Positions 4,740 to 31,493 of a stretch of 62,013 bases of DNA are shown piece by piece; within the stretch, counting starts at the first letter, position 1; every line of letters starts with the position of its first letter. This DNA is from Deltaproteobacteria bacterium. GTDB lineage: Bacteria > Desulfobacterota > Syntrophia > Syntrophales > Smithellaceae. The notes beneath the pieces were generated by a model that was given only the letters and a program-made list of their open reading frames with translations, made no database searches and was not told the origin of the DNA. The stretch covers positions 1-62,013 of the forward strand of contig JAJFTS010000149.1 of the NCBI GenBank assembly GCA_021372815.1, read 5' to 3'. Both the position numbers and the translations under genes were made by a program.

Positions 4740-7103
4740 TTACTCCCGTGTTTTGAGCACCTCAACCAGGTCAAGATGATTCAGCTTGTAACGCACAATC
4801 AGGCCGGATACCAGCGCCGAAAAAATAACCACCGCCGCCGCCTGGGCGTAAGTGCTCATCTCGATAATCATCGGCACCCGGAAAAGATCGGATGCCAGCG
4901 AGTTGGCAATATAGGCGCAGAGCCAGTATCCGACAACAAATCCCAGCGGAATGGCGATCAGCGTAATCAGCGCCAGTTCCCCCAGCAGGATGTAAGCGAT
5001 TTCACCCCGCGTATATCCTAAAACCCGCAGAGAAGAGAGCTCACGGCTTCTTTCGGATAAAGATATTCTCGCGCTGTTGTACACAACGCCGAACGCAATG
5101 GAACACGCCATTATTGTAGCAATAAAAGTAAAAAAAAGCATTCCTTTTGCCATTACGTCGTAAACATTTCTGATTTCATTTTTCCGGATGACTATTTCCG
5201 AAACGCGCGGCATCTCCACAAAAGACCGGAAGAGCTTTTCGCGGTATTTTTCATCCGTAACCAGATAAGCGCCGGAGATGGCTTCGCCCTCATTCATCAG
5301 ACGGTTGAGCGCTTTTAAATCCATATAGCCCATGACGCCCAGATACTGTTTGGCCAGTGCGACCACGGGAACCTGCCGGACAGCCTTGGAGCCTTCCAGT
5401 GCTTCGACCGTCAGCATGTCGCCGGCCTTGACGCCGAGAATCTTGCCCAGATAATCGGTCAGCAAAATCCCCGACGAAGGCACGGGAATGGTTTTAAGAT
5501 TTTTGTCGAGCAGCAGACTGAGACGGCTGTCCGGTTCTATCCCGTTAATGACGGTTTTATAACTGCGGTGACCGAAATTAAGTTTCACCGGAACAACCCG
5601 GAAACTCTCTCCGTCGTTGATGCCCTGTGTTTGTTTCAGCTCATAGATCGCCCGGTAGGAAGTCGGTTCGATAAAAGTCAGCGTCATATCTTCTTTCTGA
5701 GAAAGAATAAAATGAATATCCACCATGTAATCAATGGAATCTTTAAAAAATCCGCTGGAGATCATTGTCGCGCAGGCGGTGGCAATGCCGATAATCGAAA
5801 GAAAAGTCCGGACGGGCTTTCTCTCCACGTTGCGGATGATTATCCGCGTGGGCTGCGAAAGCCAGCGGCCGATGCCCGTTTTTTCGATAAATGAAATCCG
5901 GTATTTGGCCGGAGCTTCCGGCCGCATGGCCTCGGCGGGAGGCTGTTGGGAAGCCTTCCAGAAAGAATGCACGGTTCCAGCCAGCGCGGAGGCCACGCTG
6001 ATCAAAACGGCCGAGATAACAACTCCCGGATGCAGTTTATAAATGAAAAACGGAAAACGATAGGTTTCCATATAAATGCCGCCCAGCAAATTCCCCAGCC
6101 AGATGCCGGCGGCGATTCCGCACAAAACGCCGACAGCGATCATCAGGACAACCATATTCGCGTAATGGAAGGCAACATCAATATTTCTATAGCCGAAAGC
6201 TTTGAGCGTCGCGATTTGTTCGCGCTGCGTACTGATCGTTCTGCTCATGATTACATTCAGCAGAAAGGCCGCCACACAGATGAATATCGTGGGAAATATT
6301 TTCGAACTGGTTTTCAGCTGGCGGAACTCTTCGCTCAAAAGACGGTGGGACATCTGATCCTTGCGGCCGTAAGCGCCGAAGCCGCCGTATTTCCCCAAAA
6401 TATTGTCAAGGTCGCGCACTACATCGCTTAATTTGGCGCCGGGATAAAGAGTCAGGACGACATCGTTAAACGCGCCGTCCATATCGTAGGCTTTGCTGAT
6501 GGCTTCGCGGGTCATCCACAAGGCGCCGTAGCGTTTAAAATCGGGACTCATGGCTCCGGCTTTCATCAATAGAACAAACTCCGGGGAAAGCGCGATGCCG
6601 GTAATCGTCAGTTTTTTCCATTTGCCGTTGATGACTGCCGCGAACTGATCCGACGGTTTCAGGCCGTGCGCCTGGGCAAAGGTTTCGTTGATGACCACTT
6701 CATCGTCCCGGGAGGGATCGGGCAGTCGGCCTTTTCGGATATAAAGGCGGTTCAGTAGCGGACTACCCTCATCGGGTATGGAAATGATCTTACCGGTAAC
6801 CGATTCGTTAAAACCTTTGATATCCAGCTTGGCCTGGGCGCAGACCCGGGTTTCCAGCTGATTGACGCCGTTGATTTTTTTTAATCTGTCTTTGAGGCTT
6901 TCCGGCGCGCGCTTTAAATTGACAAAGACATCGGCAAAATTATAGTCGCGATAAAACTTGCTGCGGGTGAAATCCAGGGAATGCATGACGCTGATAAACA
7001 TAATGAACGTCGCCACGCCGCTGAGCACCACCAGCGTGATGGCAAAGACCTGGCCTTTCATCTGCCACAGTTCCCGCCAGAGTTTTCGATGCAACGCCTT
7101 CAT
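4740..7103 (-). CDS. ABC transporter permease, double FtsX-domain (MacB/DevC-like)
   Basis: 787 aa with two FtsX-type 4-TM modules, each preceded by a large periplasmic domain. Confidence 0.85.
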   Translation of the reverse strand: MKALHRKLWRELWQMKGQVFAITLVVLSGVATFIMFISVMHSLDFTRSKFYRDYNFADVFVNLKRAPESLKDRLKKINGVNQLETRVCAQAKLDIKGFNESVTGKIISIPDEGSPLLNRLYIRKGRLPDPSRDDEVVINETFAQAHGLKPSDQFAAVINGKWKKLTITGIALSPEFVLLMKAGAMSPDFKRYGALWMTREAISKAYDMDGAFNDVVLTLYPGAKLSDVVRDLDNILGKYGGFGAYGRKDQMSHRLLSEEFRQLKTSSKIFPTIFICVAAFLLNVIMSRTISTQREQIATLKAFGYRNIDVAFHYANMVVLMIAVGVLCGIAAGIWLGNLLGGIYMETYRFPFFIYKLHPGVVISAVLISVASALAGTVHSFWKASQQPPAEAMRPEAPAKYRISFIEKTGIGRWLSQPTRIIIRNVERKPVRTFLSIIGIATACATMISSGFFKDSIDYMVDIHFILSQKEDMTLTFIEPTSYRAIYELKQTQGINDGESFRVVPVKLNFGHRSYKTVINGIEPDSRLSLLLDKNLKTIPVPSSGILLTDYLGKILGVKAGDMLTVEALEGSKAVRQVPVVALAKQYLGVMGYMDLKALNRLMNEGEAISGAYLVTDEKYREKLFRSFVEMPRVSEIVIRKNEIRNVYDVMAKGMLFFTFIATIMACSIAFGVVYNSARISLSERSRELSSLRVLGYTRGEIAYILLGELALITLIAIPLGFVVGYWLCAYIANSLASDLFRVPMIIEMSTYAQAAAVVIFSALVSGLIVRYKLNHLDLVEVLKTRE

Positions 7104-7109
7104 AATTTT

Positions 7110-7206
7110 AAGTTCAACGTTCTATGTTCTATGTTCTAAGTTTCTGTACTTTGTACTCTGTACTAATAACTTTTTCCCCTTGCTACTTGACCCTTTGCTA
7201 CTATTG
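7110..7206 (+). repeat. Left boundary of cassette: 13-nt inverted repeat, 7-nt periodic array and short direct repeats
   Basis: AAGTTCAACGTTC (7110-7122). Heptads GTTCAAC GTTCTAT GTTCTAT GTTCTAA GTTTCTG, then GTACTTT GTACTCT GTACTAA (to 7166). CCTTGCTACTTGACCCT at 7178-7194. TTGCTACT occurs twice (7180, 7195). Confidence 0.8.
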
Positions 7207-8088
7207 TCACGGCAATGAAATTCTTTTATCCTTATGTTTCGCCCACCAGGTTTTGTATTCAGTCAGTTTATTTTGGATGGAGGCGATGTCGTTGTTTTGT
7301 TTATAACCAGCTAGTGCTTTAATATCTGCATCAGTGGCAATGTTATAATATTTCTGACGGTAATTTAAAAAGACGTTCATGCTGCGAACAAGATTATAGA
7401 TTAGGTCTGACTGCTTCACACTGCCTGTCTGCGATTGTGCATTCCATTTGTCGCACAGCCATAAACGGCGGTCCATTTCGTCCTTGATCCATTTAGATTG
7501 ATTGTCCTTTGTTCTTAAATCGGCAGATGTTACTGCTGGCAATGTCGAAGGAAACTTCACTAGGTACGCGTTCACAACTTCCACAGGTTCTGGCTTGGTC
7601 ATTTGCCCATCTTCATACTCTATGGAAATGACCTTGTTATTACTAATCCATCTATACACCCACCCTGCTGAACCAAATGTCATAATGTTATTACCATTTA
7701 CAACACGCATGATATACTGGTCACCAGGAATGCCTAAAGAAGTTCTAAAAGCTTTATCCAACTCATGCAGCAGCCATCTGTCCGAATCACCGCCCGTGTG
7801 CTGGGTGACTTGGACGTCCGGAGATACATTGCCGCTATTACTTAGGTACATTACACCGTATGTTACATCGTTATGATCTTGGAAATGGCCTGTGGCACTT
7901 AAAATATTTTTCTTTACAAGATGGGGTCCACCTGTTGCTGGTTCACCGGGCAAATCTTTTTCTGGTTTATCTAATTTGTAATTTCCAATATCTTGAAGTA
8001 TTAAATAGTCAGAAATATTTTGTGTAAAAGCTATAATTGGAAACAATAACAATCCAATCAATATTACAGCAAATTTTATTTTCCTCAC
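7207..8088 (-). CDS. Hypothetical secreted protein (passenger gene inside the ABC operon)
   Basis: GTG start behind GGAGGG. Signal peptide MRKIKFAVILIGLLLFPIIAFTQ. Visibly AT-richer than the flanking genes. No family recognised. Confidence 0.6.
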   Translation of the reverse strand: MRKIKFAVILIGLLLFPIIAFTQNISDYLILQDIGNYKLDKPEKDLPGEPATGGPHLVKKNILSATGHFQDHNDVTYGVMYLSNSGNVSPDVQVTQHTGGDSDRWLLHELDKAFRTSLGIPGDQYIMRVVNGNNIMTFGSAGWVYRWISNNKVISIEYEDGQMTKPEPVEVVNAYLVKFPSTLPAVTSADLRTKDNQSKWIKDEMDRRLWLCDKWNAQSQTGSVKQSDLIYNLVRSMNVFLNYRQKYYNIATDADIKALAGYKQNNDIASIQNKLTEYKTWWAKHKDKRISLP

Positions 8089-8118
8089 TTAGCCCTCCAG
8101 GTAATGAATTTATCCCAT

Positions 8119-8194
8119 GCTGGTTCAATCATTTTGATTGAACCGTCTATTTGCTCTACAATTTTCTGATTCAATCTACAAGATTGAACCAGCT
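8119..8194. repeat. Cluster of GGTTCAATC / GATTGAACC inverted repeats (alternative hairpins)
   Basis: GGTTCAATC (8122-8130) pairs with GATTGAACC (8136-8144). TCAATCT-aca-AGATTGA at 8171-8187. GCTGGTTCAATC (8119) can alternatively pair with GATTGAACCAGC (8183-8194). Confidence 0.7.
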
Positions 8195-8206
8195 TAAGAA
8201 ATAATT

Positions 8207-8491
8207 GTCATTCCCGCGCAGGCGGGAATCCAGTTTTTTGTCCTGGATGCCGTTCTTCAACGGCATGACAGAGGACATATTATTTATTTGTCATTACCCA
8301 ACGCATGCCCGGCGCATGCCTGAGTGATTGGGCAATCCAGTTTTCTTTTTTCCTGGATGCCGTTCTTCAACGGCATGACAGAGGACATATTATTTATTTG
8401 TCATTGCCCAACTCATGCCCGGCGCATGCCTGGGTGATTGGGCAATCCAGTTTGTTTTTATTTCCTGGATACCGGCCTGCGCGGGAATGAT
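8207..8491. repeat. REP/MITE-like composite: two 110-bp tandem units flanked by inverted copies of a GTCATTCCCGCGCAGGCGGGAATCCAG-type hairpin
   Basis: Unit TCCTGGATGCCGTTCTTCAACGGCATGACAGAGGACATATTATTTATTTGTCATT.CCCAAC.CATGCCCGGCGCATGCCTG.GTGATTGGGCAATCCAG starts at 8241 and 8351 (period 110, few mismatches). End hairpins at 8207-8233 and 8464-8491 are near reverse complements (24/26). Confidence 0.85.
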
Positions 8492-8496
8492 AACTT

Positions 8497-8562
8497 CCTT
8501 GCTGCTTGCCCTCCGTCACCTCGAACTTCAACTTTGAACCTTGAACCTGGAACGTTGAACTT
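8497..8562 (-). repeat. Right boundary of cassette: direct repeat plus inverted heptad array and 13-nt inverted repeat
   Basis: CCTTGCTGCTTGCCCT at 8497-8512. GAAC recurs every 7 nt (8523, 8536, 8543, 8550, 8557). GAACGTTGAACTT (8550-8562) is the exact reverse complement of 7110-7122. Confidence 0.8.
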
Positions 8563-8569
8563 TGTTTTT

Positions 8570-9295
8570 TTACCACACCAGATCGCTCGCGGATTTCTTC
8601 ACCTTGTTGATTGTCACTTCCGCGATTTTGCCGTTGCTTAGATGAATAACGCGGTCGGCCATGCCGGCAATGTCCACGTTATGGGTGATGATGGCCGTCG
8701 CCGTGCCCAATTCGCGGTTGATGCGCTCCAGAGCCTCCAGAACCACTATGCCGGTTTTGGAATCGAGTGCGCCGGTCGGTTCGTCGCAGAGGAGCACTGC
8801 CGGTTTCTTGGAAATAGCGCGCGCGATGGCCACGCGCTGCTGTTCGCCGCCGGAAAGCTGGGCGGGGAAATGATTCAACCGGTCGCTTAATCCGACAAGC
8901 TCCAGAGCCGCCTCCGGAGCCATGGGTTTTTCGGCAATTTCCGTCACGACCGAAACATTTTCCCGGGCGGTCAAACTGGAAATCAGATTGTAGAATTGAA
9001 AAACAAATCCGACATAGAAACGGCGGTAATCCGTCAGTTCTTTTTCCGTGGCTCTGGTCAAGTCTTTGCCCCGGTAGGAGACAAATCCGCCGGTTGCCGT
9101 GTCCAGACCGCCCATGATATTCAGCAGCGTGGATTTGCCGCTTCCCGAAGGCCCAAGCAGAACAACCAGTTCCCCGGCGTAGAGTTCCATGTTGACGCCG
9201 CGCAGGGCGTGAACCTCAACTTCTCCCATCTTATAAATTTTCGTGAGATCACAAACCTGAAAAAAATTTTCTTTCTGCTGATTCATCGGCTTCAC
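8570..9295 (-). CDS. ABC transporter ATP-binding protein (MacB/LolD-type)
   Basis: Walker [10 protein letters not shown], signature LSGGEQQR, Walker [12 protein letters not shown]. Confidence 0.92.
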
Positions 9296-9349: not shown

Positions 9350-10153
9350 TCAATAGGTGTAGCTAATGGCGGCGCCGGCGGAAAATCTGTCCGCATATTG
9401 CCCTTCAATATTCAGACGGAATCCTTTGGCAAGAGGAATATCCGCTCCCGCGAATCCTCCGGCAGTCGATTTGTTTTCGACGGAAACATTTCCGGCCGCG
9501 TATTCCAGACCGGGAACAGCCGCAGACAAAGACATCTTCGCTTCCGAATAATAGAGATAGGGACCGGCATACAGTCTCATGCCGCAGGACAGTGTGGCCT
9601 GCAGGCCAACACCGAAATTCACATCCCAGAGATTTTTCACTTTCAGATCGGCGACAAAAGGAACGCCGCCACTGATTCCGGAGACATTGTCCGTGAAATT
9701 GCTGAAATAATAAGTCCCCTGCACAAAAGCGCCCATGCCGAATGTTTCATTGAACGGATAAAATATCTTGGCGCCCAGGGTACCGGAAAATTTCCAGTTT
9801 TCTTCAAAATCATCTTTGCCGGTCGCGGTGGAGGGGTCTGCGGAGCTGAAAACGTCGAATATTTTCAAGTCCGATACGCCGAGACGCGCGTATATTTCCC
9901 AGATGTTTCCGGCGCCGTAGGCCGCCTGAGAATAAATCATGTTTTGTCTGATTTTATGATCCGCGCCGTTTTGGCAGGTATCTTCATGATACCAGTAACC
10001 GACGGCGGTGTTGATTCCACCCGCTTCCTTCGAAACGGTTTGCGGCGCACCGAACAGCCCCGCCGCCGCGACTATCCGCGGACAAACGGCAAAAATCAAC
10101 AAAAGCACCAGCGTGATAAGCAGAAAATTTTTTGCGAAAATTTCTTTCTTCAT
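9350..10153 (-). CDS. Outer-membrane beta-barrel protein (porin-family/OmpW-like size)
   Basis: Signal peptide, alternating amphipathic beta-strand pattern, aromatic C-terminus (ISYTY). Its start abuts the mlaA stop (10153/10154). Confidence 0.6.
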   Translation of the reverse strand: MKKEIFAKNFLLITLVLLLIFAVCPRIVAAAGLFGAPQTVSKEAGGINTAVGYWYHEDTCQNGADHKIRQNMIYSQAAYGAGNIWEIYARLGVSDLKIFDVFSSADPSTATGKDDFEENWKFSGTLGAKIFYPFNETFGMGAFVQGTYYFSNFTDNVSGISGGVPFVADLKVKNLWDVNFGVGLQATLSCGMRLYAGPYLYYSEAKMSLSAAVPGLEYAAGNVSVENKSTAGGFAGADIPLAKGFRLNIEGQYADRFSAGAAISYTY

Positions 10154-12389: not shown

Positions 12390-13634
12390 TTATTCACTCC
12401 CCGCGGCACAACTTAGCCGCCCGATTTCTTTTTGTTGAGATTTGGCTAAAGTGACAACAGAATCTATATCGGTTGTTGACCGACCCTGGGCAATGCCGGC
12501 CATAATCATCAATTCGACCGGCCCCCCCGGGGACAATTTGCAGGCGCTCTCCTGGATGCTCTGCAGAATCTGTTTTTGAAAATCATGAACAAAATTTTTC
12601 ATGATGCTTTCCGTTTCGGATAAATTTGAATAGGGAAGCATCGTAATAATCTCATTGGTATTCCGGCGGGTGGAAAAGCCGCCGATGGCGCCGAAATGTT
12701 TATCAATATATAATCCCATGCCCCGAATAGCCTCCTGCGCCGCATCATGTCCGACACTGCTGGCAATTCCGTTGAGTCCCTGCAGGCTGAAAACCACCAG
12801 GCAGTAAGATTCCTCCTCCGGTCTCCTTTTCATTTGAAGGTGATTGAGCATTTCGAACTGGCGTTTGGAATAAAGGCCGGTCAGTTCTTTTTGCAGCACT
12901 TCTAAACTGTGGATGACTTCCTCTTTGAACGGATGATCGAAATTCTCCATTTCTTCCGGCGTTCCCTGAAATACAATCTGATGATTATAAAGAGAAAGAA
13001 TCCGGTTGGAGATAAAATAGACATCCGGGATTTCATGGCTGACGAGGATGGCTGTAAAGTTAAATTTTTTCTGATACTGGGCTATCATGCTTAAAATAGC
13101 ATTTTTCCGTACGGGATCCTGACCGGTTGTCGGTTCGTCAAACAAAACGATCTTGGGATCGGTAATCAGGGCGCGCGCCAGCGCGGCTCTTTTCTGCATG
13201 CCTCCGGAAAGTTCCGAAGGGTACCGGTGTGCCGACTCGGTCAGTTCCGTCTGCTCGATTCTGGCCATCACCCGGCGATCAATTTCCGCTTTCTTCAAAT
13301 TGGTGGATTCCCGGAGCGGCAGCGCGATATTTTCGTAAACGGTCATGGAATCAAACAAAGCATTCCCCTGAAACATGTAGCTTATCTGAGCGAAAGCCGC
13401 GGTAATTTCGGACTTGGTCATGGAAGAAATCGGTTTGCCGCGAAACAGAATAGCCCCTTCGTCGGGCTTCATCAATCCGATGATATGTTTGAGCATGACG
13501 CTTTTACCCGAACCGGAAAGGCCGATAATTGTGGTAACTTCTCCTTCGTAGATCTGCAAATTAACACGGTCCAGCACGGTTCGTCGGCCGAAGCGCTTGG
13601 TAACATCTTTGAATTCAATAAGTGGCGTTTCCAT
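12390..13634 (-). CDS. mlaF: MlaF-type ABC ATPase fused to a C-terminal degenerate GGDEF-like domain
   Basis: N-terminal 250 aa carry Walker A GLSGSGKS, signature LSGGMQKR and Walker B VLFDEPTTGQD. The C-terminal ~165 aa align to GGDEF landmarks: LTGLYSKRQF; VVFSLQGLNGIASSVGHDAAQEAIRGM; RRNTNEIITMLP in place of R.GGDEF. Confidence 0.8.
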   Translation of the reverse strand: METPLIEFKDVTKRFGRRTVLDRVNLQIYEGEVTTIIGLSGSGKSVMLKHIIGLMKPDEGAILFRGKPISSMTKSEITAAFAQISYMFQGNALFDSMTVYENIALPLRESTNLKKAEIDRRVMARIEQTELTESAHRYPSELSGGMQKRAALARALITDPKIVLFDEPTTGQDPVRKNAILSMIAQYQKKFNFTAILVSHEIPDVYFISNRILSLYNHQIVFQGTPEEMENFDHPFKEEVIHSLEVLQKELTGLYSKRQFEMLNHLQMKRRPEEESYCLVVFSLQGLNGIASSVGHDAAQEAIRGMGLYIDKHFGAIGGFSTRRNTNEIITMLPYSNLSETESIMKNFVHDFQKQILQSIQESACKLSPGGPVELMIMAGIAQGRSTTDIDSVVTLAKSQQKEIGRLSCAAGSE

Positions 13635-29747: not shown

Positions 29748-31493
29748 CTATTGCTTTGGCTTCAGTAAATCTTCAAGTTTTTTTTGTATAGAAACATTTT
29801 TAGAATCAATTTTCAGCGCGCGTTCGTACATTTCCCGGGCATCTTTAATTTTATTGAGTTTTACGTAAACGTCGCCCAGGTGTTCGATGATCTCAATCTC
29901 GTCCGGTAAAAGATCCAGGGCCTGTTTTAAATATTTTTCGGCATTGTTCAATTTATTTTTTTTGAAATTCACCCAGCCCAGGCTGTCCAGTAAATAACCG
30001 TTATCCGGTTTAATTTCCAGGGCCCTTTTGATCAATTTTTCCGCTTCATCAAGATTAATACCCCTGTCCGCATAACTGTAACCTATAAAATTAAGTGTTT
30101 CAGCGTTGTCCGGATCCATTGCTAAAATTTTTTCCATTGTCGTGATACTTTCTGAAAAACGATCCGTCTTTTCATAAAGAACACCCAGGGCATAATAAAG
30201 ATCTGTGTTTTTAGGAGCAATTTTGATCCCTTCCATTAACAGCTTTTCAGAAGCCGGATAGTCGCCGGCCTCCTCATAAAGAGCCGATAAAAAAAGATAA
30301 AGAGGTATCTGATCGTTGTTTTTTTCAATGGCCGCTTTTATTAAATTAACGGCCTGGCTGGTTTTTCCTTCCTTTTTTAAGAGCATACTGGCGTGAATTT
30401 GAGAACTGACATATAATTCGGAAGCAACCGAAATATTCTTATATTCTTCTATGGCCATTTCGTTTTCGCCCTTCTGCTCATAAGTTGTCGCCAGTAAATA
30501 ACGAACCTTGTCATCTGTAATATTTTGCTGGAGAATTGCAGAAAACTCTTTTATGGCTGAATCAAGTTTGCTTGTATCCAAATACAATAACCCCAGCGCC
30601 ACTCTTACATCGCGATTATCCGGATCAATTTTTAAGACTTCCTGAAATTCCTTTTCCGCTTCATCATATTTTTTCTTTTTTATGAAAAGTTCTCCTATTC
30701 TTATCCGCAAACTCAGCCGTGTGGGATTTGCAGCCAGATAATTGCTGTAGACTTCGATCGCCTTATCCAGTTTCTCCTGCTTTTCATAAAGCGCGGCCAA
30801 ATCAAACAACGCCATTTCAAAGGCAGGATTTAAAGACAAGACTTTTTTATACATCTTTTCCGCTTCATCATACTTTTCCGTCTTCTCGAACGTTTTCCCA
30901 TAATAATACATGCCAATAATATTGTCGGGATCTATTTTCAGCATTTTCTTGAATGTTTCTTCCGCCTTATCATATCTTTTTTCTTCAGCAAAAATTATCC
31001 CCAGATAAAGATGAGCAATAAGATTTTTGGGGTCGAGTTCAATGACTTTTTTATGTTCCCGGATCGCTTTCGCGTACTCGCGGATATTCAGATATAAACC
31101 GCCCATAATTAAATGCAATTCCACATTATCGGGATTTTTGGAGAGAGCTTCTTCTCCCTGAGAAATCGCTTCATTGAAATCGCCCTGTTCCGCGTAAAGA
31201 GCAATAAGTTCCGTCGCCAAGTAAGAAGATTCGGGATCCGCGGCTACCGCCTGCTTCAATTCATCGGTGGCTTCCTCCAGTTTTCCTTCCTGACGCAGAA
31301 TAACACTGAGGGAATAGTGGTAAGAGGCGCTTGTCGGTTGGCTTTCCGCAGGGGCAGGAACAATCTGAGCTTTCCGCAGACTGATGCAACCGCATATATT
31401 GACCAAAGCTAACATCAATACAAATATTAAAAGGATTCTGTTCTTTTTCATACCGACTCTTCGCTGGGTTATTAGCTTTTCCTTAATTATCAA
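29748..31493 (-). CDS. Tetratricopeptide-repeat lipoprotein
   Basis: More than 12 tandem TPR units (A..Y..AL..DP.N). The internal start MKKNRILLIFVLMLALVNICGC (31451) would give a lipobox. Confidence 0.85.
   Translation of the reverse strand: MIIKEKLITQRRVGMKKNRILLIFVLMLALVNICGCISLRKAQIVPAPAESQPTSASYHYSLSVILRQEGKLEEATDELKQAVAADPESSYLATELIALYAEQGDFNEAISQGEEALSKNPDNVELHLIMGGLYLNIREYAKAIREHKKVIELDPKNLIAHLYLGIIFAEEKRYDKAEETFKKMLKIDPDNIIGMYYYGKTFEKTEKYDEAEKMYKKVLSLNPAFEMALFDLAALYEKQEKLDKAIEVYSNYLAANPTRLSLRIRIGELFIKKKKYDEAEKEFQEVLKIDPDNRDVRVALGLLYLDTSKLDSAIKEFSAILQQNITDDKVRYLLATTYEQKGENEMAIEEYKNISVASELYVSSQIHASMLLKKEGKTSQAVNLIKAAIEKNNDQIPLYLFLSALYEEAGDYPASEKLLMEGIKIAPKNTDLYYALGVLYEKTDRFSESITTMEKILAMDPDNAETLNFIGYSYADRGINLDEAEKLIKRALEIKPDNGYLLDSLGWVNFKKNKLNNAEKYLKQALDLLPDEIEIIEHLGDVYVKLNKIKDAREMYERALKIDSKNVSIQKKLEDLLKPKQ

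Follow-up and report, generated by a model that had tools for sequence, protein, structure and literature searches.

In the 1980s, Higgins and co-workers reportedly described clusters of repetitive extragenic palindromic (REP) units, or bacterial interspersed mosaic elements (BIMEs), between cistrons of enterobacteria, for instance between malE and malF and between hisJ and hisQ. In ATP-binding cassette (ABC) transporter operons these units form mRNA hairpins that adjust how strongly the cistrons on either side are expressed relative to each other. Hairpin-forming REP doublets (REPINs) and the REP-associated tyrosine transposases (RAYTs) were reportedly described by Nunvar in 2010, Bertels and Rainey in 2011 and Ton-Hoang in 2012. 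In this system, inverted doublets of short repeats form hairpins, and the gene of a Y1 HUH transposase is flanked by such repeats. The present article concerns a spacer in an ABC exporter operon of a Smithella-like bacterium, in which small palindromes, two facing arrays of 7-nt repeats and a gene for a secreted protein, orf293, separate the ATPase gene from the permease gene. The spacer occupies positions 7104-8569 of a 62,013-nt stretch of DNA (GenBank assembly GCA_021372815.1, contig JAJFTS010000149.1), and this whole stretch is called the window below.

Geobacter belongs to a related deltaproteobacterial group. In Geobacter metallireducens, "global regulator binding sites" of classes 1-3 consist of 3-5 tandem repeats of 7-8 nt and occur as opposite-strand pairs at variable distance (PMC2700814). 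One such pair lies between proB and proA, two genes of one operon, insertion sequences occur at a constant spacing from some of the sites, and the authors proposed, as a hypothesis, that IHF or HU binds the paired sites (PMC2700814). Heptameric repeats as such are over-represented in bacterial genomes and also occur as inverted pairs. Examples are the heterogeneous (GGGANTN)n of Xanthomonas, which include inverted pairs, GGGGA(C/T)T in Nostoc and the short tandemly repeated repetitive (STRR) sequences of Calothrix (PMC4692102). Heptameric TAACTGA repeats are found in Beggiatoaceae, Cyanobacteria and Bacteroidetes (PMC4679880).

A first reading of the window, made without database searches (the sequence-only reading), took the spacer for a passenger cassette bounded by an inverted repeat and by inverted heptad arrays. 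We consider a different history likely, namely that the spacer is composite and was accreted at a formerly 4-nt junction within a Smithella-like clade of the Syntrophales, rather than being a single element. Its first part would be two oppositely oriented, degenerate GTTCNNN arrays, simple-sequence repeats that change by whole units through slippage. They would belong to a widespread, uncharacterised intergenic class whose members usually form convergent, hairpin-forming pairs. The second part would be small hairpins and palindromic units of REP-like type, enclosed by the arrays. The third part would be a segment of ~980 nt with an orphan, AT-rich and recombinationally mosaic gene. Normally this gene directly follows a gene for a type-I phosphodiesterase, and a gene for a Y1 (RAYT-like) transposase is often its other neighbour. 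The 13-nt inverted repeat at the ends of the spacer would be a by-product of the two facing GTTC arrays and not the end of a transposon. Four of these points can be observed directly in the comparisons below: the lineage-specific, stepwise make-up of the spacer, the slippage, the arrays' generic distribution and the usual context of the gene.

Evidence for an insertion is provided by orthologous operons. A search with the permease gave 80 orthologous loci in species-representative genomes, 50-86% identical and spanning Syntrophales, Nitrospirota, Gammaproteobacteria, Acidobacteriota and others; the junction could be compared in the 73 loci where ATPase and permease are both visible. The spacer is at most 15 nt long in 57 of these operons, and in 32 of the 57 it is exactly 4 nt. 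Two others have 32-35 nt and 14 have 78-390 nt; none of the 73 spacers exceeds 400 nt. The short spacers indicate that the ancestral junction was tightly coupled. Judging from these comparisons, the interruption is a lineage-specific insertion between formerly adjacent genes, as the sequence-only reading had also held. One outcome that would have refuted that reading, orf293 as an ancestral member of the operon, is contradicted: the gene is found in none of the 73 operons and thus lacks the conserved presence expected of an intrinsic part of the exporter.

The make-up of the spacer can be followed in close relatives (loci in other genomes are given by L numbers). The source is Smithella-like, the best permease matches being L167 (86%), L169 (85%) and L168 (83%). 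The L167 spacer is 142 nt long and lacks the gene; an orthologous ATPase-side array is joined there by one small hairpin and by an inverted array that is degenerate. The L169 spacer, of 393 nt, has the orthologous ATPase-side array, a REP-like unit, two hairpins and then the permease-side array, again without the gene. Its parts are ~90-95% identical in nucleotide sequence to those of the window, judged by eye from the alignment.

This alignment also locates the segment that L169 lacks. In L169, CCAGCATGG adjoins ACATAGAAC directly; in the window, CCAGCATGG is followed by GATAAATTC, and ACTTAGA precedes ACATAGAAC at the far end. From CCAGCATGG, L169 runs through ACATAGAACGTAGAAC to the ATG and into the permease. 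L169 thus contains the equivalents of window positions 8115-8569 and 7104-7134 but not of 7135-8114, a boundary that is uncertain by ~7 nt owing to repeats. No target duplication is found at the 7135/8114 boundary.

Three further relatives, the genome L150 and the metagenome contigs L267 and L297, have MlaA, orf267 and the ATPase upstream as in the window and a permease 76-82% identical to it. All three carry an orf293 homologue at the identical ATPase/permease junction, and the ATPase-side GTTC array is absent from all three. The inverted arrays before the permease are orthologous in L169, L150 and L267. In L150, a compact forward-plus-inverted GTTC/GTAC hairpin lies between the stop codon of the orf293 homologue and the permease ATG. 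Since L167 and L169 have arrays without the gene, whereas L150, L267 and L297 have the gene without the ATPase-side array, it follows that arrays, REP-like units and gene vary independently. The claim that the inverted repeat and the arrays bound a cassette does not survive this comparison, in which presence and absence change at 7135 and 8114.

Other sequences are also present at this junction. A MITE-like element (miniature inverted-repeat transposable element) with long inverted ends, GTTTTGCGCCAAAATCATTTTCG...CGAAAATAGATATTTTGGCGCAAAAC, sits between the ATPase and the embedded orf293 of L150 (5795-5985), L267 (3775-3990) and L297 (3166-3300), replacing the array, REP-like units and hairpins of the window. 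Palindromic spacers with unrelated tandem cores are found at the same junction in L194 (4825-5000), L198 (4913-5000), L196 (4864-5000), L187, L190, L193 and L195. Their arms have the cores GCGGATT, GATTGTN, AGTCAGG, GGNTCAA and the 10-nt CACGAATTTN, and they close only a few nt away from the stop codon and the start codon. In several of these genomes, comparable modules also separate the permease gene from the HlyD gene.

The coordinates, the 13-nt inverted repeat and the GTTCNNN arrays named in the sequence-only reading were borne out when the sequence was checked. The sequence AAGTTCAACGTTC at 7110-7122 returns as its exact reverse complement at the other end of the spacer, with 6 nt separating the left arm from the permease ATG (7103) and 7 nt separating the right arm from the ATPase stop codon (8570-8572). 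The repeat extends to 33 nt with 85% complementarity (7110-7142 against 8530-8562). The pattern GTTCNNNGTTCNNNGTTC, with at most one mismatch, has 6 matches in the window against 0.22 expected, all at the two array sites. Tandem Repeats Finder reports period 7 at 7119-7142, 7143-7164 and 8518-8564. Together, these results place the arrays far beyond chance, and no other GTTCNNN array occurs in the window.

On the minus (coding) strand, the ATPase-side array reads AAGTTCAAC GTTCCAG GTTCAAG GTTCAAA GTTGAAG TTCG. The 7-nt periodicity had been called strict. The period itself is confirmed, and period-7 runs number 2 in the window against 0-1 at other periods (5, 6, 8-11); strictness, however, is not. 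At 7140-7146, the step from the GTTC to the GTAC sub-array is 6 nt; a second step of this length is found at 8523/8529, where the unit at 8529 reads CAAC rather than GAAC.

Slippage of these arrays can be seen in a public contig (L120, GCA_039680285.1) that is 99.65% identical to the window over an alignment of 8,051 nt. The only gap in this alignment is one 7-nt unit of the left array (window 7133-7139 against L120 4510-4541), which is direct evidence of heptad slippage. Unit numbers also differ in L167 and L169. With at least three head-to-tail 7-nt units that share a core, unit-number polymorphism and an excess of period 7, the arrays are heptameric simple-sequence repeats.

A perfect 13-nt core within a 33-nt inverted repeat, placed exactly at both gene boundaries, is also what a single non-autonomous MITE-like transposon with a passenger gene might show, if the heptad arrays were its terminal inverted repeats and its transposase were encoded elsewhere. 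The AT-rich interior would suit such an element, as would the spread of GTTC arrays over many phyla. Against it stands the lack of a target-site duplication at the ends of the inverted repeat, where the outer flanks are CATAATTTT and TGTTTTTTTA (AATTTT vs TGTTTTT). Likewise, no second copy of the arrays, the REP-like block or the whole unit is found elsewhere in the window. An inverted repeat does lie at the ends of the region, as a transposon would have it, but any two facing GTTC arrays give one too.

GTTC arrays in other bacteria give a measure of such complementarity. The pattern AAGTTCAACGTTCNNNGTTCNNNGTTC, which specifies 21 bases, occurs at no fewer than 119 loci, against ~0.3 chance matches expected in 596 Gb by our own estimate. 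The phyla among the matches listed include Nitrospirota, Verrucomicrobiota, Bacteroidota, Acidobacteriota, Desulfobacterota, Chloroflexota, Bacillota, Patescibacteria and others. These loci hold 281 arrays, mostly of 4-5 units and at most of 25, with a variable triplet that is mostly AAN. Of 48 adjacent convergent pairs, 36 have at most 150 nt between them, and such close convergent pairs can be read as hairpin modules. Long interiors separate 8 convergent, 18 divergent and 21 same-orientation pairs.

When unrelated arrays from other genomes are set in register, they share on average 23.3 of 33 nt. A score of 28 of 33 is attained in about 10% of such comparisons, and an exact run of at least 13 nt is shared in 8%. 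The match in the window, 28 of 33 with a 13-nt run, therefore stands at about the 90th percentile of unrelated array pairs. Once the array class is recognised, the perfect 13-mer therefore adds nothing.

Several further observations concern the arrays as a class. Convergent pairs in L001-L119 often have loops of ~35 nt and occur in metagenome-assembled genomes of many phyla, and in L092, L112, L015 and L037 GTTC arrays fill nearly every intergenic region. Solo arrays favour gene ends over gene starts. The idea that convergent arrays commonly enclose gene-sized interiors was rejected on the counts of long-interior pairs given above. A literature search for tandem GTTCAAN strings gave no bacterial paper. 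The GTTCAAN unit has a possible resemblance to the tRNA T-loop sequence GTTCRAN.

Between the arrays, the hairpin cluster and the REP/MITE-like block of the sequence-only reading were both found. In the block, inverted GTCATTCCCGCGCAGGCGGGAATCCAG arms at 8205-8233 and 8465-8493 surround a 110-nt unit that is repeated 2.2 times (8236-8474). Its GTCAT-stem-TCCAG units occur in both orientations and form the sole cluster of this kind in the window; related units are found in L169, L152, L157, L267, L297 and L122. The GGTTCAATC hairpins directly adjoin the permease-side array in L169. The same-orientation repeat described just inside both arrays is also real, with 15 nt at 87% identity (7178-7192 vs 8497-8511), and similar strings are found in L169 as well as 3' of the orf293 homologues of L121, L128 and L267, in their flanks.

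The gene orf293 was described as an AT-richer open reading frame (ORF) of unknown family with a signal peptide, and this description holds. Its GC content is 39.5% and its GC content at third codon positions is 38%, compared with 56-65% at third positions in the operon genes, which marks it as compositionally foreign; it has no Pfam or NCBIfam match. More than 545 homologues exist. None of them has a functional name, those with a label being called "hypothetical protein", and those with an organism name come from Nitrospirota and Smithella. The family alignment shows an invariant H..H.G.D.D..L.HE motif, with residues including H68, H97, G99, D101, D103, H108 and E109. Structure prediction, which the sequence-only reading had put forward as a check, gave a confident AlphaFold2 model (pLDDT 84, pTM 0.78), in which the N-terminal domain is rich in beta structure and the C-terminal domain is helical. 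It gave no significant structural neighbour, as Foldseek found no match in the PDB at E <= 0.001, and thus no assignment of a function. The best matches, none of them significant (E-value 0.026 or worse), are periplasmic ligand- or lipid-binding or sensor domains: the PknH sensor, TiME, RseB and LpqN.

The usual surroundings of the family are quite different from an exporter operon. In most of 129 homologue loci (L121-L166, L247-L329), a gene for a PF01663 type-I phosphodiesterase lies immediately upstream, for example in L248 (791-3480), L128 (4361-7470) and L249 (2886-4520). The products of these partner genes end in ...C.GNWK..D..K.I...QY. Outside the four lineages with an embedded copy (the window, L150, L267 and L297), orf293 usually neighbours a phosphodiesterase gene and does not accompany ABC exporters, which supports an insertion at the junction. 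Homologues are often arranged as tandem pairs, with several copies per genome. Paralogues within a single genome are 46-74% identical, which points to a family of long-standing paralogues and not to a unit that has transposed recently.

A second associated gene is that of a Y1 transposase. Y1_Tnp genes are found in 26 of 129 orf293 loci; in the control sets the counts are 1 of 80 (permease loci) and 0 of 119 (GTTC-pattern loci). Their usual place is 50-400 nt past the orf293 stop codon, flanked by inverted repeats of 20-25 nt that start with GGGG(T/A)C. Their best NCBIfam model is the REP-associated tyrosine transposase, with 76.9 bits against a cutoff of 80. Near the orf293 of the window there is neither a phosphodiesterase gene nor a Y1 gene, and the whole window has no Y1 gene; this copy is an orphan of its family.

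It is also a mosaic. Over residues 126-195, identity is 90% with L122/L247, two Smithella copies linked to phosphodiesterase genes, and only 46-50% with the other embedded copies. Residues 196-293, by contrast, are closest to the embedded copy of L267 (76%), and residues 26-90 are closest to a third type (62%). A stretch of 36 nt over the ribosome-binding site and first codons is 94% identical to L267. From this pattern the gene can be called a segmental mosaic. The simplest reading is one old insertion at the junction within the clade, followed by exchange of segments with paralogues, although independent arrivals are possible.

Table 1. Features in and around the interrupted junction (window coordinates)
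Feature	Position	Strand	Basis and remarks
Permease with two FtsX domains, downstream flank	4740..7103	-	Pfam FtsX 6.6e-31; 80 orthologous loci
Permease-side heptad array, inverted relative to the ATPase-side array; ends 6 nt before permease ATG	7110..7146	-	Pattern scan, Tandem Repeats Finder
GTAC heptad sub-array downstream of orf293 stop	7146..7166	-	Reads GTACAGA GTACAAA GTACAGA on minus strand
Left copies of CCTTGCTAC repeat, in 3' flank of orf293	7176..7202		Minus strand AGTAGCAAAGGGTCAAGTAGCAAGGGG
orf293, secreted protein of unnamed family	7207..8088	-	293 codons; signal peptide; GGAGGG ribosome-binding site
Segment that the window has and L169 lacks: leader (ribosome-binding site GGAGGG), orf293, 3' flank	7135..8114	-	Alignment; ~980 nt
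Two GGTTCAATC...GATTGAACC hairpins	8119..8193		Repeat search; ~95% identical in L169
REP-like palindromic block	8205..8493		Tandem Repeats Finder period 110 (score 420) and repeat search
Right copy of same-orientation repeat, CCTTGCTGCTTGCCCT	8497..8512		Minus strand AGGGCAAGCAGCAAGG, degenerate heptad-like motif
ATPase-side heptad array, ~6 units; begins 7 nt past ATPase stop	8523..8562	-	Pattern scan, Tandem Repeats Finder
Right arm of perfect 13-nt inverted repeat, GAACGTTGAACTT	8550..8562		Sequence and repeat search
ABC ATPase, LolD/DevA/MacB type	8570..9295	-	Pfam ABC_tran 3.9e-34; NCBIfam DevA and LolD ~1e-60

The operon is part of a larger minus-strand cluster with the order MlaE, MlaF, MlaD, MlaC, MlaA, orf267, ATPase, insert, double-FtsX permease, HlyD, AAA-domain protein and PEMT. 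The ATPase, which forms the upstream flank of the interruption, has orthologues 86-91% identical in L167-L170, and the permease start ATGAAGGCG is kept in all orthologues. The stated absence of a transposase or integrase from the region holds both inside the spacer and within ~8 kb of it, where Pfam and ORF annotation gave neither these nor any recombinase of the kind that an integron would have. A search of 6900-8800 against Rfam gave no family at its gathering score and three weak matches to small RNAs (E-values 0.08-1), and no dedicated attC model was run.

Three other observations were made in the window. The ABC ATPase at the MlaF position (12390-13634, minus strand; ABC_tran 4.9e-35) has a C-terminal GGDEF, or diguanylate cyclase, domain (2.6e-06), an unusual fusion. 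The gene orf267 (9350-10153, minus strand), between MlaA and the ATPase, has no Pfam or NCBIfam match and is found at the same position, 58-71% identical, in the Smithella-like operons L150, L167-L170, L186, L191, L267 and L297. Finally, a 47-nt direct repeat is present in three diverged copies at 30634-30986, spaced by 204 and 102 nt; it probably lies within a coding region, as a repeat internal to it.

A scan for sigma-70 promoters and terminators found nothing significant on the coding (minus) strand, so that read-through from the ATPase is the default. The permease start has no Shine-Dalgarno sequence, having lost the Shine-Dalgarno-like GGTG that 4-nt junctions embed in the 3' end of the ATPase gene. 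In a minimum-free-energy fold of the 1,495-nt minus-strand transcript, a helix of 26 bp between 8530-8562 and 7110-7142 encloses the entire insert. This duplex of the two arms has -34.1 kcal/mol, against -13.0 +/- 3.4 for shuffled arms, and neither arm has a stable local alternative fold.

Other long spacers show a comparable arrangement. Most orthologous spacers above ~85 nt fold as a single hairpin domain, with z-scores that are approximate because they come from mononucleotide shuffles. In L169, L193, L194, L195, L196, L198, L219 and L235, the closing stem begins at most 8 nt from the stop codon and ends at most 33 nt from the start codon. The heptad arms of such stems have quite different cores, such as GCGGATT, GATTGTN and AGTCAGG.

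A possible model follows from these folds. The whole spacer would be transcribed together with the operon, and in the RNA the paired arrays would turn the 1.39-kb insert into a closed loop, so that only ~13 nt would separate the ATPase stop from the permease start. This proximity may preserve part of the coupling once given by the 4-nt junction. When a ribosome terminates on the ATPase gene, it would unpair the stem at its base and so make the permease start accessible. By likeness to REP elements in enterobacterial ABC operons, the intercistronic hairpin may also buffer the mRNA.

Some results weigh against the composite reading or against this RNA model. For the flanking genes, neighbour-joining gave star-like trees over which the insertion states are scattered in patches; gene loss in L167 and L169 is therefore indistinguishable from gain in the window. 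Heptad arrays are rare in the lineage: the window has 2, and related operon loci totalling 265 kb have 6. The sequence-only reading would have been overturned by heptads that are a generic intergenic motif, and this is half the case: they are generic across many phyla, yet rare here. They are also 6-7 times enriched within 150 nt past the stop codons of the orf293 family (17 of 135, against 10 of 539 control ORFs). Because of this enrichment and the rarity of arrays elsewhere in the lineage, the arrays may have arrived with the gene, in which case L167 and L169 would be deletion derivatives. As for the RNA, a fixed orientation of arrays relative to neighbouring genes, as expected of an RNA element, is unsupported for solo arrays (74 vs 76), and this balance argues against a general function at the RNA level. 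The predicted pairing is a thermodynamic calculation over 1.4 kb that ignores translation and co-transcriptional folding. Coupling by the stem cannot be general, since L150, L267 and L297 have no ATPase-side arm.

Two further observations tie heptads to orf293 loci. Period-7 runs number 38 in 387 kb of these loci, against 0-4 for periods 5, 6 and 8-11. GTAC/GTTC arrays lie past the stop codon of orf293 homologues in L121, L146, L150 and L152.

Apart from composite accretion, the gene may owe its position to selection. In this explanation, orf293 has been co-opted as an accessory or cargo protein of the exporter and the Mla lipid-trafficking cluster, and is kept at the junction for that reason. 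Homologues at exactly this junction in four lineages, the cluster MlaEFDCA-orf267-ATPase-permease-HlyD and the ligand- or lipid-binding character of the weak structural neighbours would all agree with co-option. So would the signal peptide, the strong ribosome-binding site and read-through from the operon, which is likely as no minus-strand promoter was found. However, the gene is missing from all 73 species-representative orthologous operons, the two closest included, its regular partner is a phosphodiesterase rather than an ABC system, and the structural matches are not significant. Moreover, the embedded copies are only 48-68% identical to each other, while the flanking genes are 76-90% identical to those of the window. 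We regard co-option as rather unlikely.

The junction could also be a recombination hot spot, at which gene conversion, with phosphodiesterase-linked paralogues as donors, time and again installs or exchanges different orf293 alleles. Such an exchange would be cassette-like, and it would be driven by homology within the gene family and by the repeat-rich flanks, not by the inverted repeat. The chimeric window copy, which changes its closest relative from L122/L247 to L267 between residues 195 and 196 and resembles L267 again over its start, is what this process would produce, and the divergence of paralogues within one genome fits an old, diversifying family. On the other hand, the segment pattern partly follows conservation across the family, in which the motif region is kept in all copies, and no near-identical donor DNA was found, the best nucleotide identity being 78.6%. 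Only four embedded examples are known. A hot spot seems quite unlikely to us.

A third route is transfer by a Y1 transposase (HUH, RAYT or IS200-like) that acts on hairpins and would have moved orf293 and part of its 3' flank from a phosphodiesterase-orf293-Y1 locus into a hairpin-rich junction. Insertion without target duplication and without terminal inverted repeats fits Y1 chemistry, and both are lacking in the inserted segment. The strong association of Y1_Tnp with orf293 loci, the GGGG(T/A)C repeats around the Y1 genes just past orf293 and the sub-cutoff match to the RAYT model point the same way. A solo repeat of the GGGG(T/A)C type lies past the embedded orf293 of L267, and a degenerate GGGTCAAGT lies past it in the window. 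This remnant is only 9 nt long, though, no left-end and right-end hairpin pair bounds 7135-8114, and the window has no Y1 gene. The association may also reflect nothing but a preference of RAYT/REP sequences for the 3' flank of orf293. Taken together, Y1 transfer is very unlikely.

A more far-reaching proposal combines several of these elements. GTTCAAN-type arrays would be a pan-bacterial, as yet unnamed class of self-expanding palindromic modules, which a shared factor spreads or maintains. In Syntrophales and Nitrospirota, these arrays, RAYT-like Y1 transposases and the repeats of the latter would jointly relocate and reshuffle members of the diversifying orf293 family; the heptad hairpin at the junction would serve as a docking site, and the long-range stem would keep the genes coupled. 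We see this as a long shot.

The single MITE-like transposon is largely refuted and extremely unlikely, given that arrays and gene are independent in relatives, that presence and absence change at 7135 and 8114 and not at the repeat ends, that comparable complementarity is found in ~10% of unrelated GTTC arrays, that long convergent pairs are not enriched, and that neither a target duplication nor a second copy was found in the window.

Composite accretion has consequences beyond this operon. What appears to be a cassette with terminal repeats would be ordinary intergenic accretion, in which a stray gene has come to lie among simple-sequence repeats and units of REP-like type. Caution is called for when inverted repeats are flagged in scans, since a perfect repeat is little informative once the class of the repeat is known. 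By-products of the comparison are the cross-phylum arrays with a GTTC core, mostly convergent hairpin pairs, and an unnamed family of more than 545 members that is tied to type-I phosphodiesterase and Y1 transposase genes and evolves by segment shuffling. Finally, palindromic insertions whose closing stem abuts the stop and start codons in many lineages suggest a rule for how operons tolerate intercistronic insertions.

Each of the known systems shares some features with the window. Like MITEs and integron cassettes, the insert is short, promoter-less and single-gene, lacks a recombinase of its own and lies beside hairpin-capable sequences. It differs from them in having no target duplication, no multi-copy unit and no attC-type site (no dedicated attC model was run), no integrase within 8 kb, and boundaries that do not coincide with the inverted repeat. 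Resemblance to the REPIN/RAYT system is found in other genomes, where Y1 genes with flanking inverted repeats adjoin orf293 homologues. The window itself has no Y1 gene, however, and its heptads are tandem arrays rather than single REP palindromes.

The likeness to REP and BIME clusters lies in small palindromes between the genes of an ABC operon, here of the form GTCAT-stem-loop-stem-TCCAG and in alternating orientation. In contrast to the enterobacterial clusters, the window has a protein-coding gene among the units, the sequences are unrelated, and an effect on mRNA stability or coupling is only presumed. The paired sites of Geobacter are matched in architecture, as the window arrays are likewise intergenic, on opposite strands and at variable distance. 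The sequence family is different, since the Geobacter units GTTGCTYN, TCTCCGTS(Y) and MTYCTGA differ from the window consensus; moreover, they were described from one genome, with no gene reported inside a pair.

Finally, the known heptameric repeats agree with the window arrays in having 7-nt tandem units with a conserved core and variable positions, mostly in 4-5 units and in intergenic regions. Like GTTC arrays, they sometimes form inverted stem-loop pairs, vary in unit number between close relatives and are patchy across phyla. The core of the window arrays is GTTC (mostly GTTCAAN, with GTAC variants) instead of being G-rich, and no quadruplex is expected. Whereas the known inverted pairs of heptameric repeats enclose tens of nt, the pair in the window encloses 1.39 kb.

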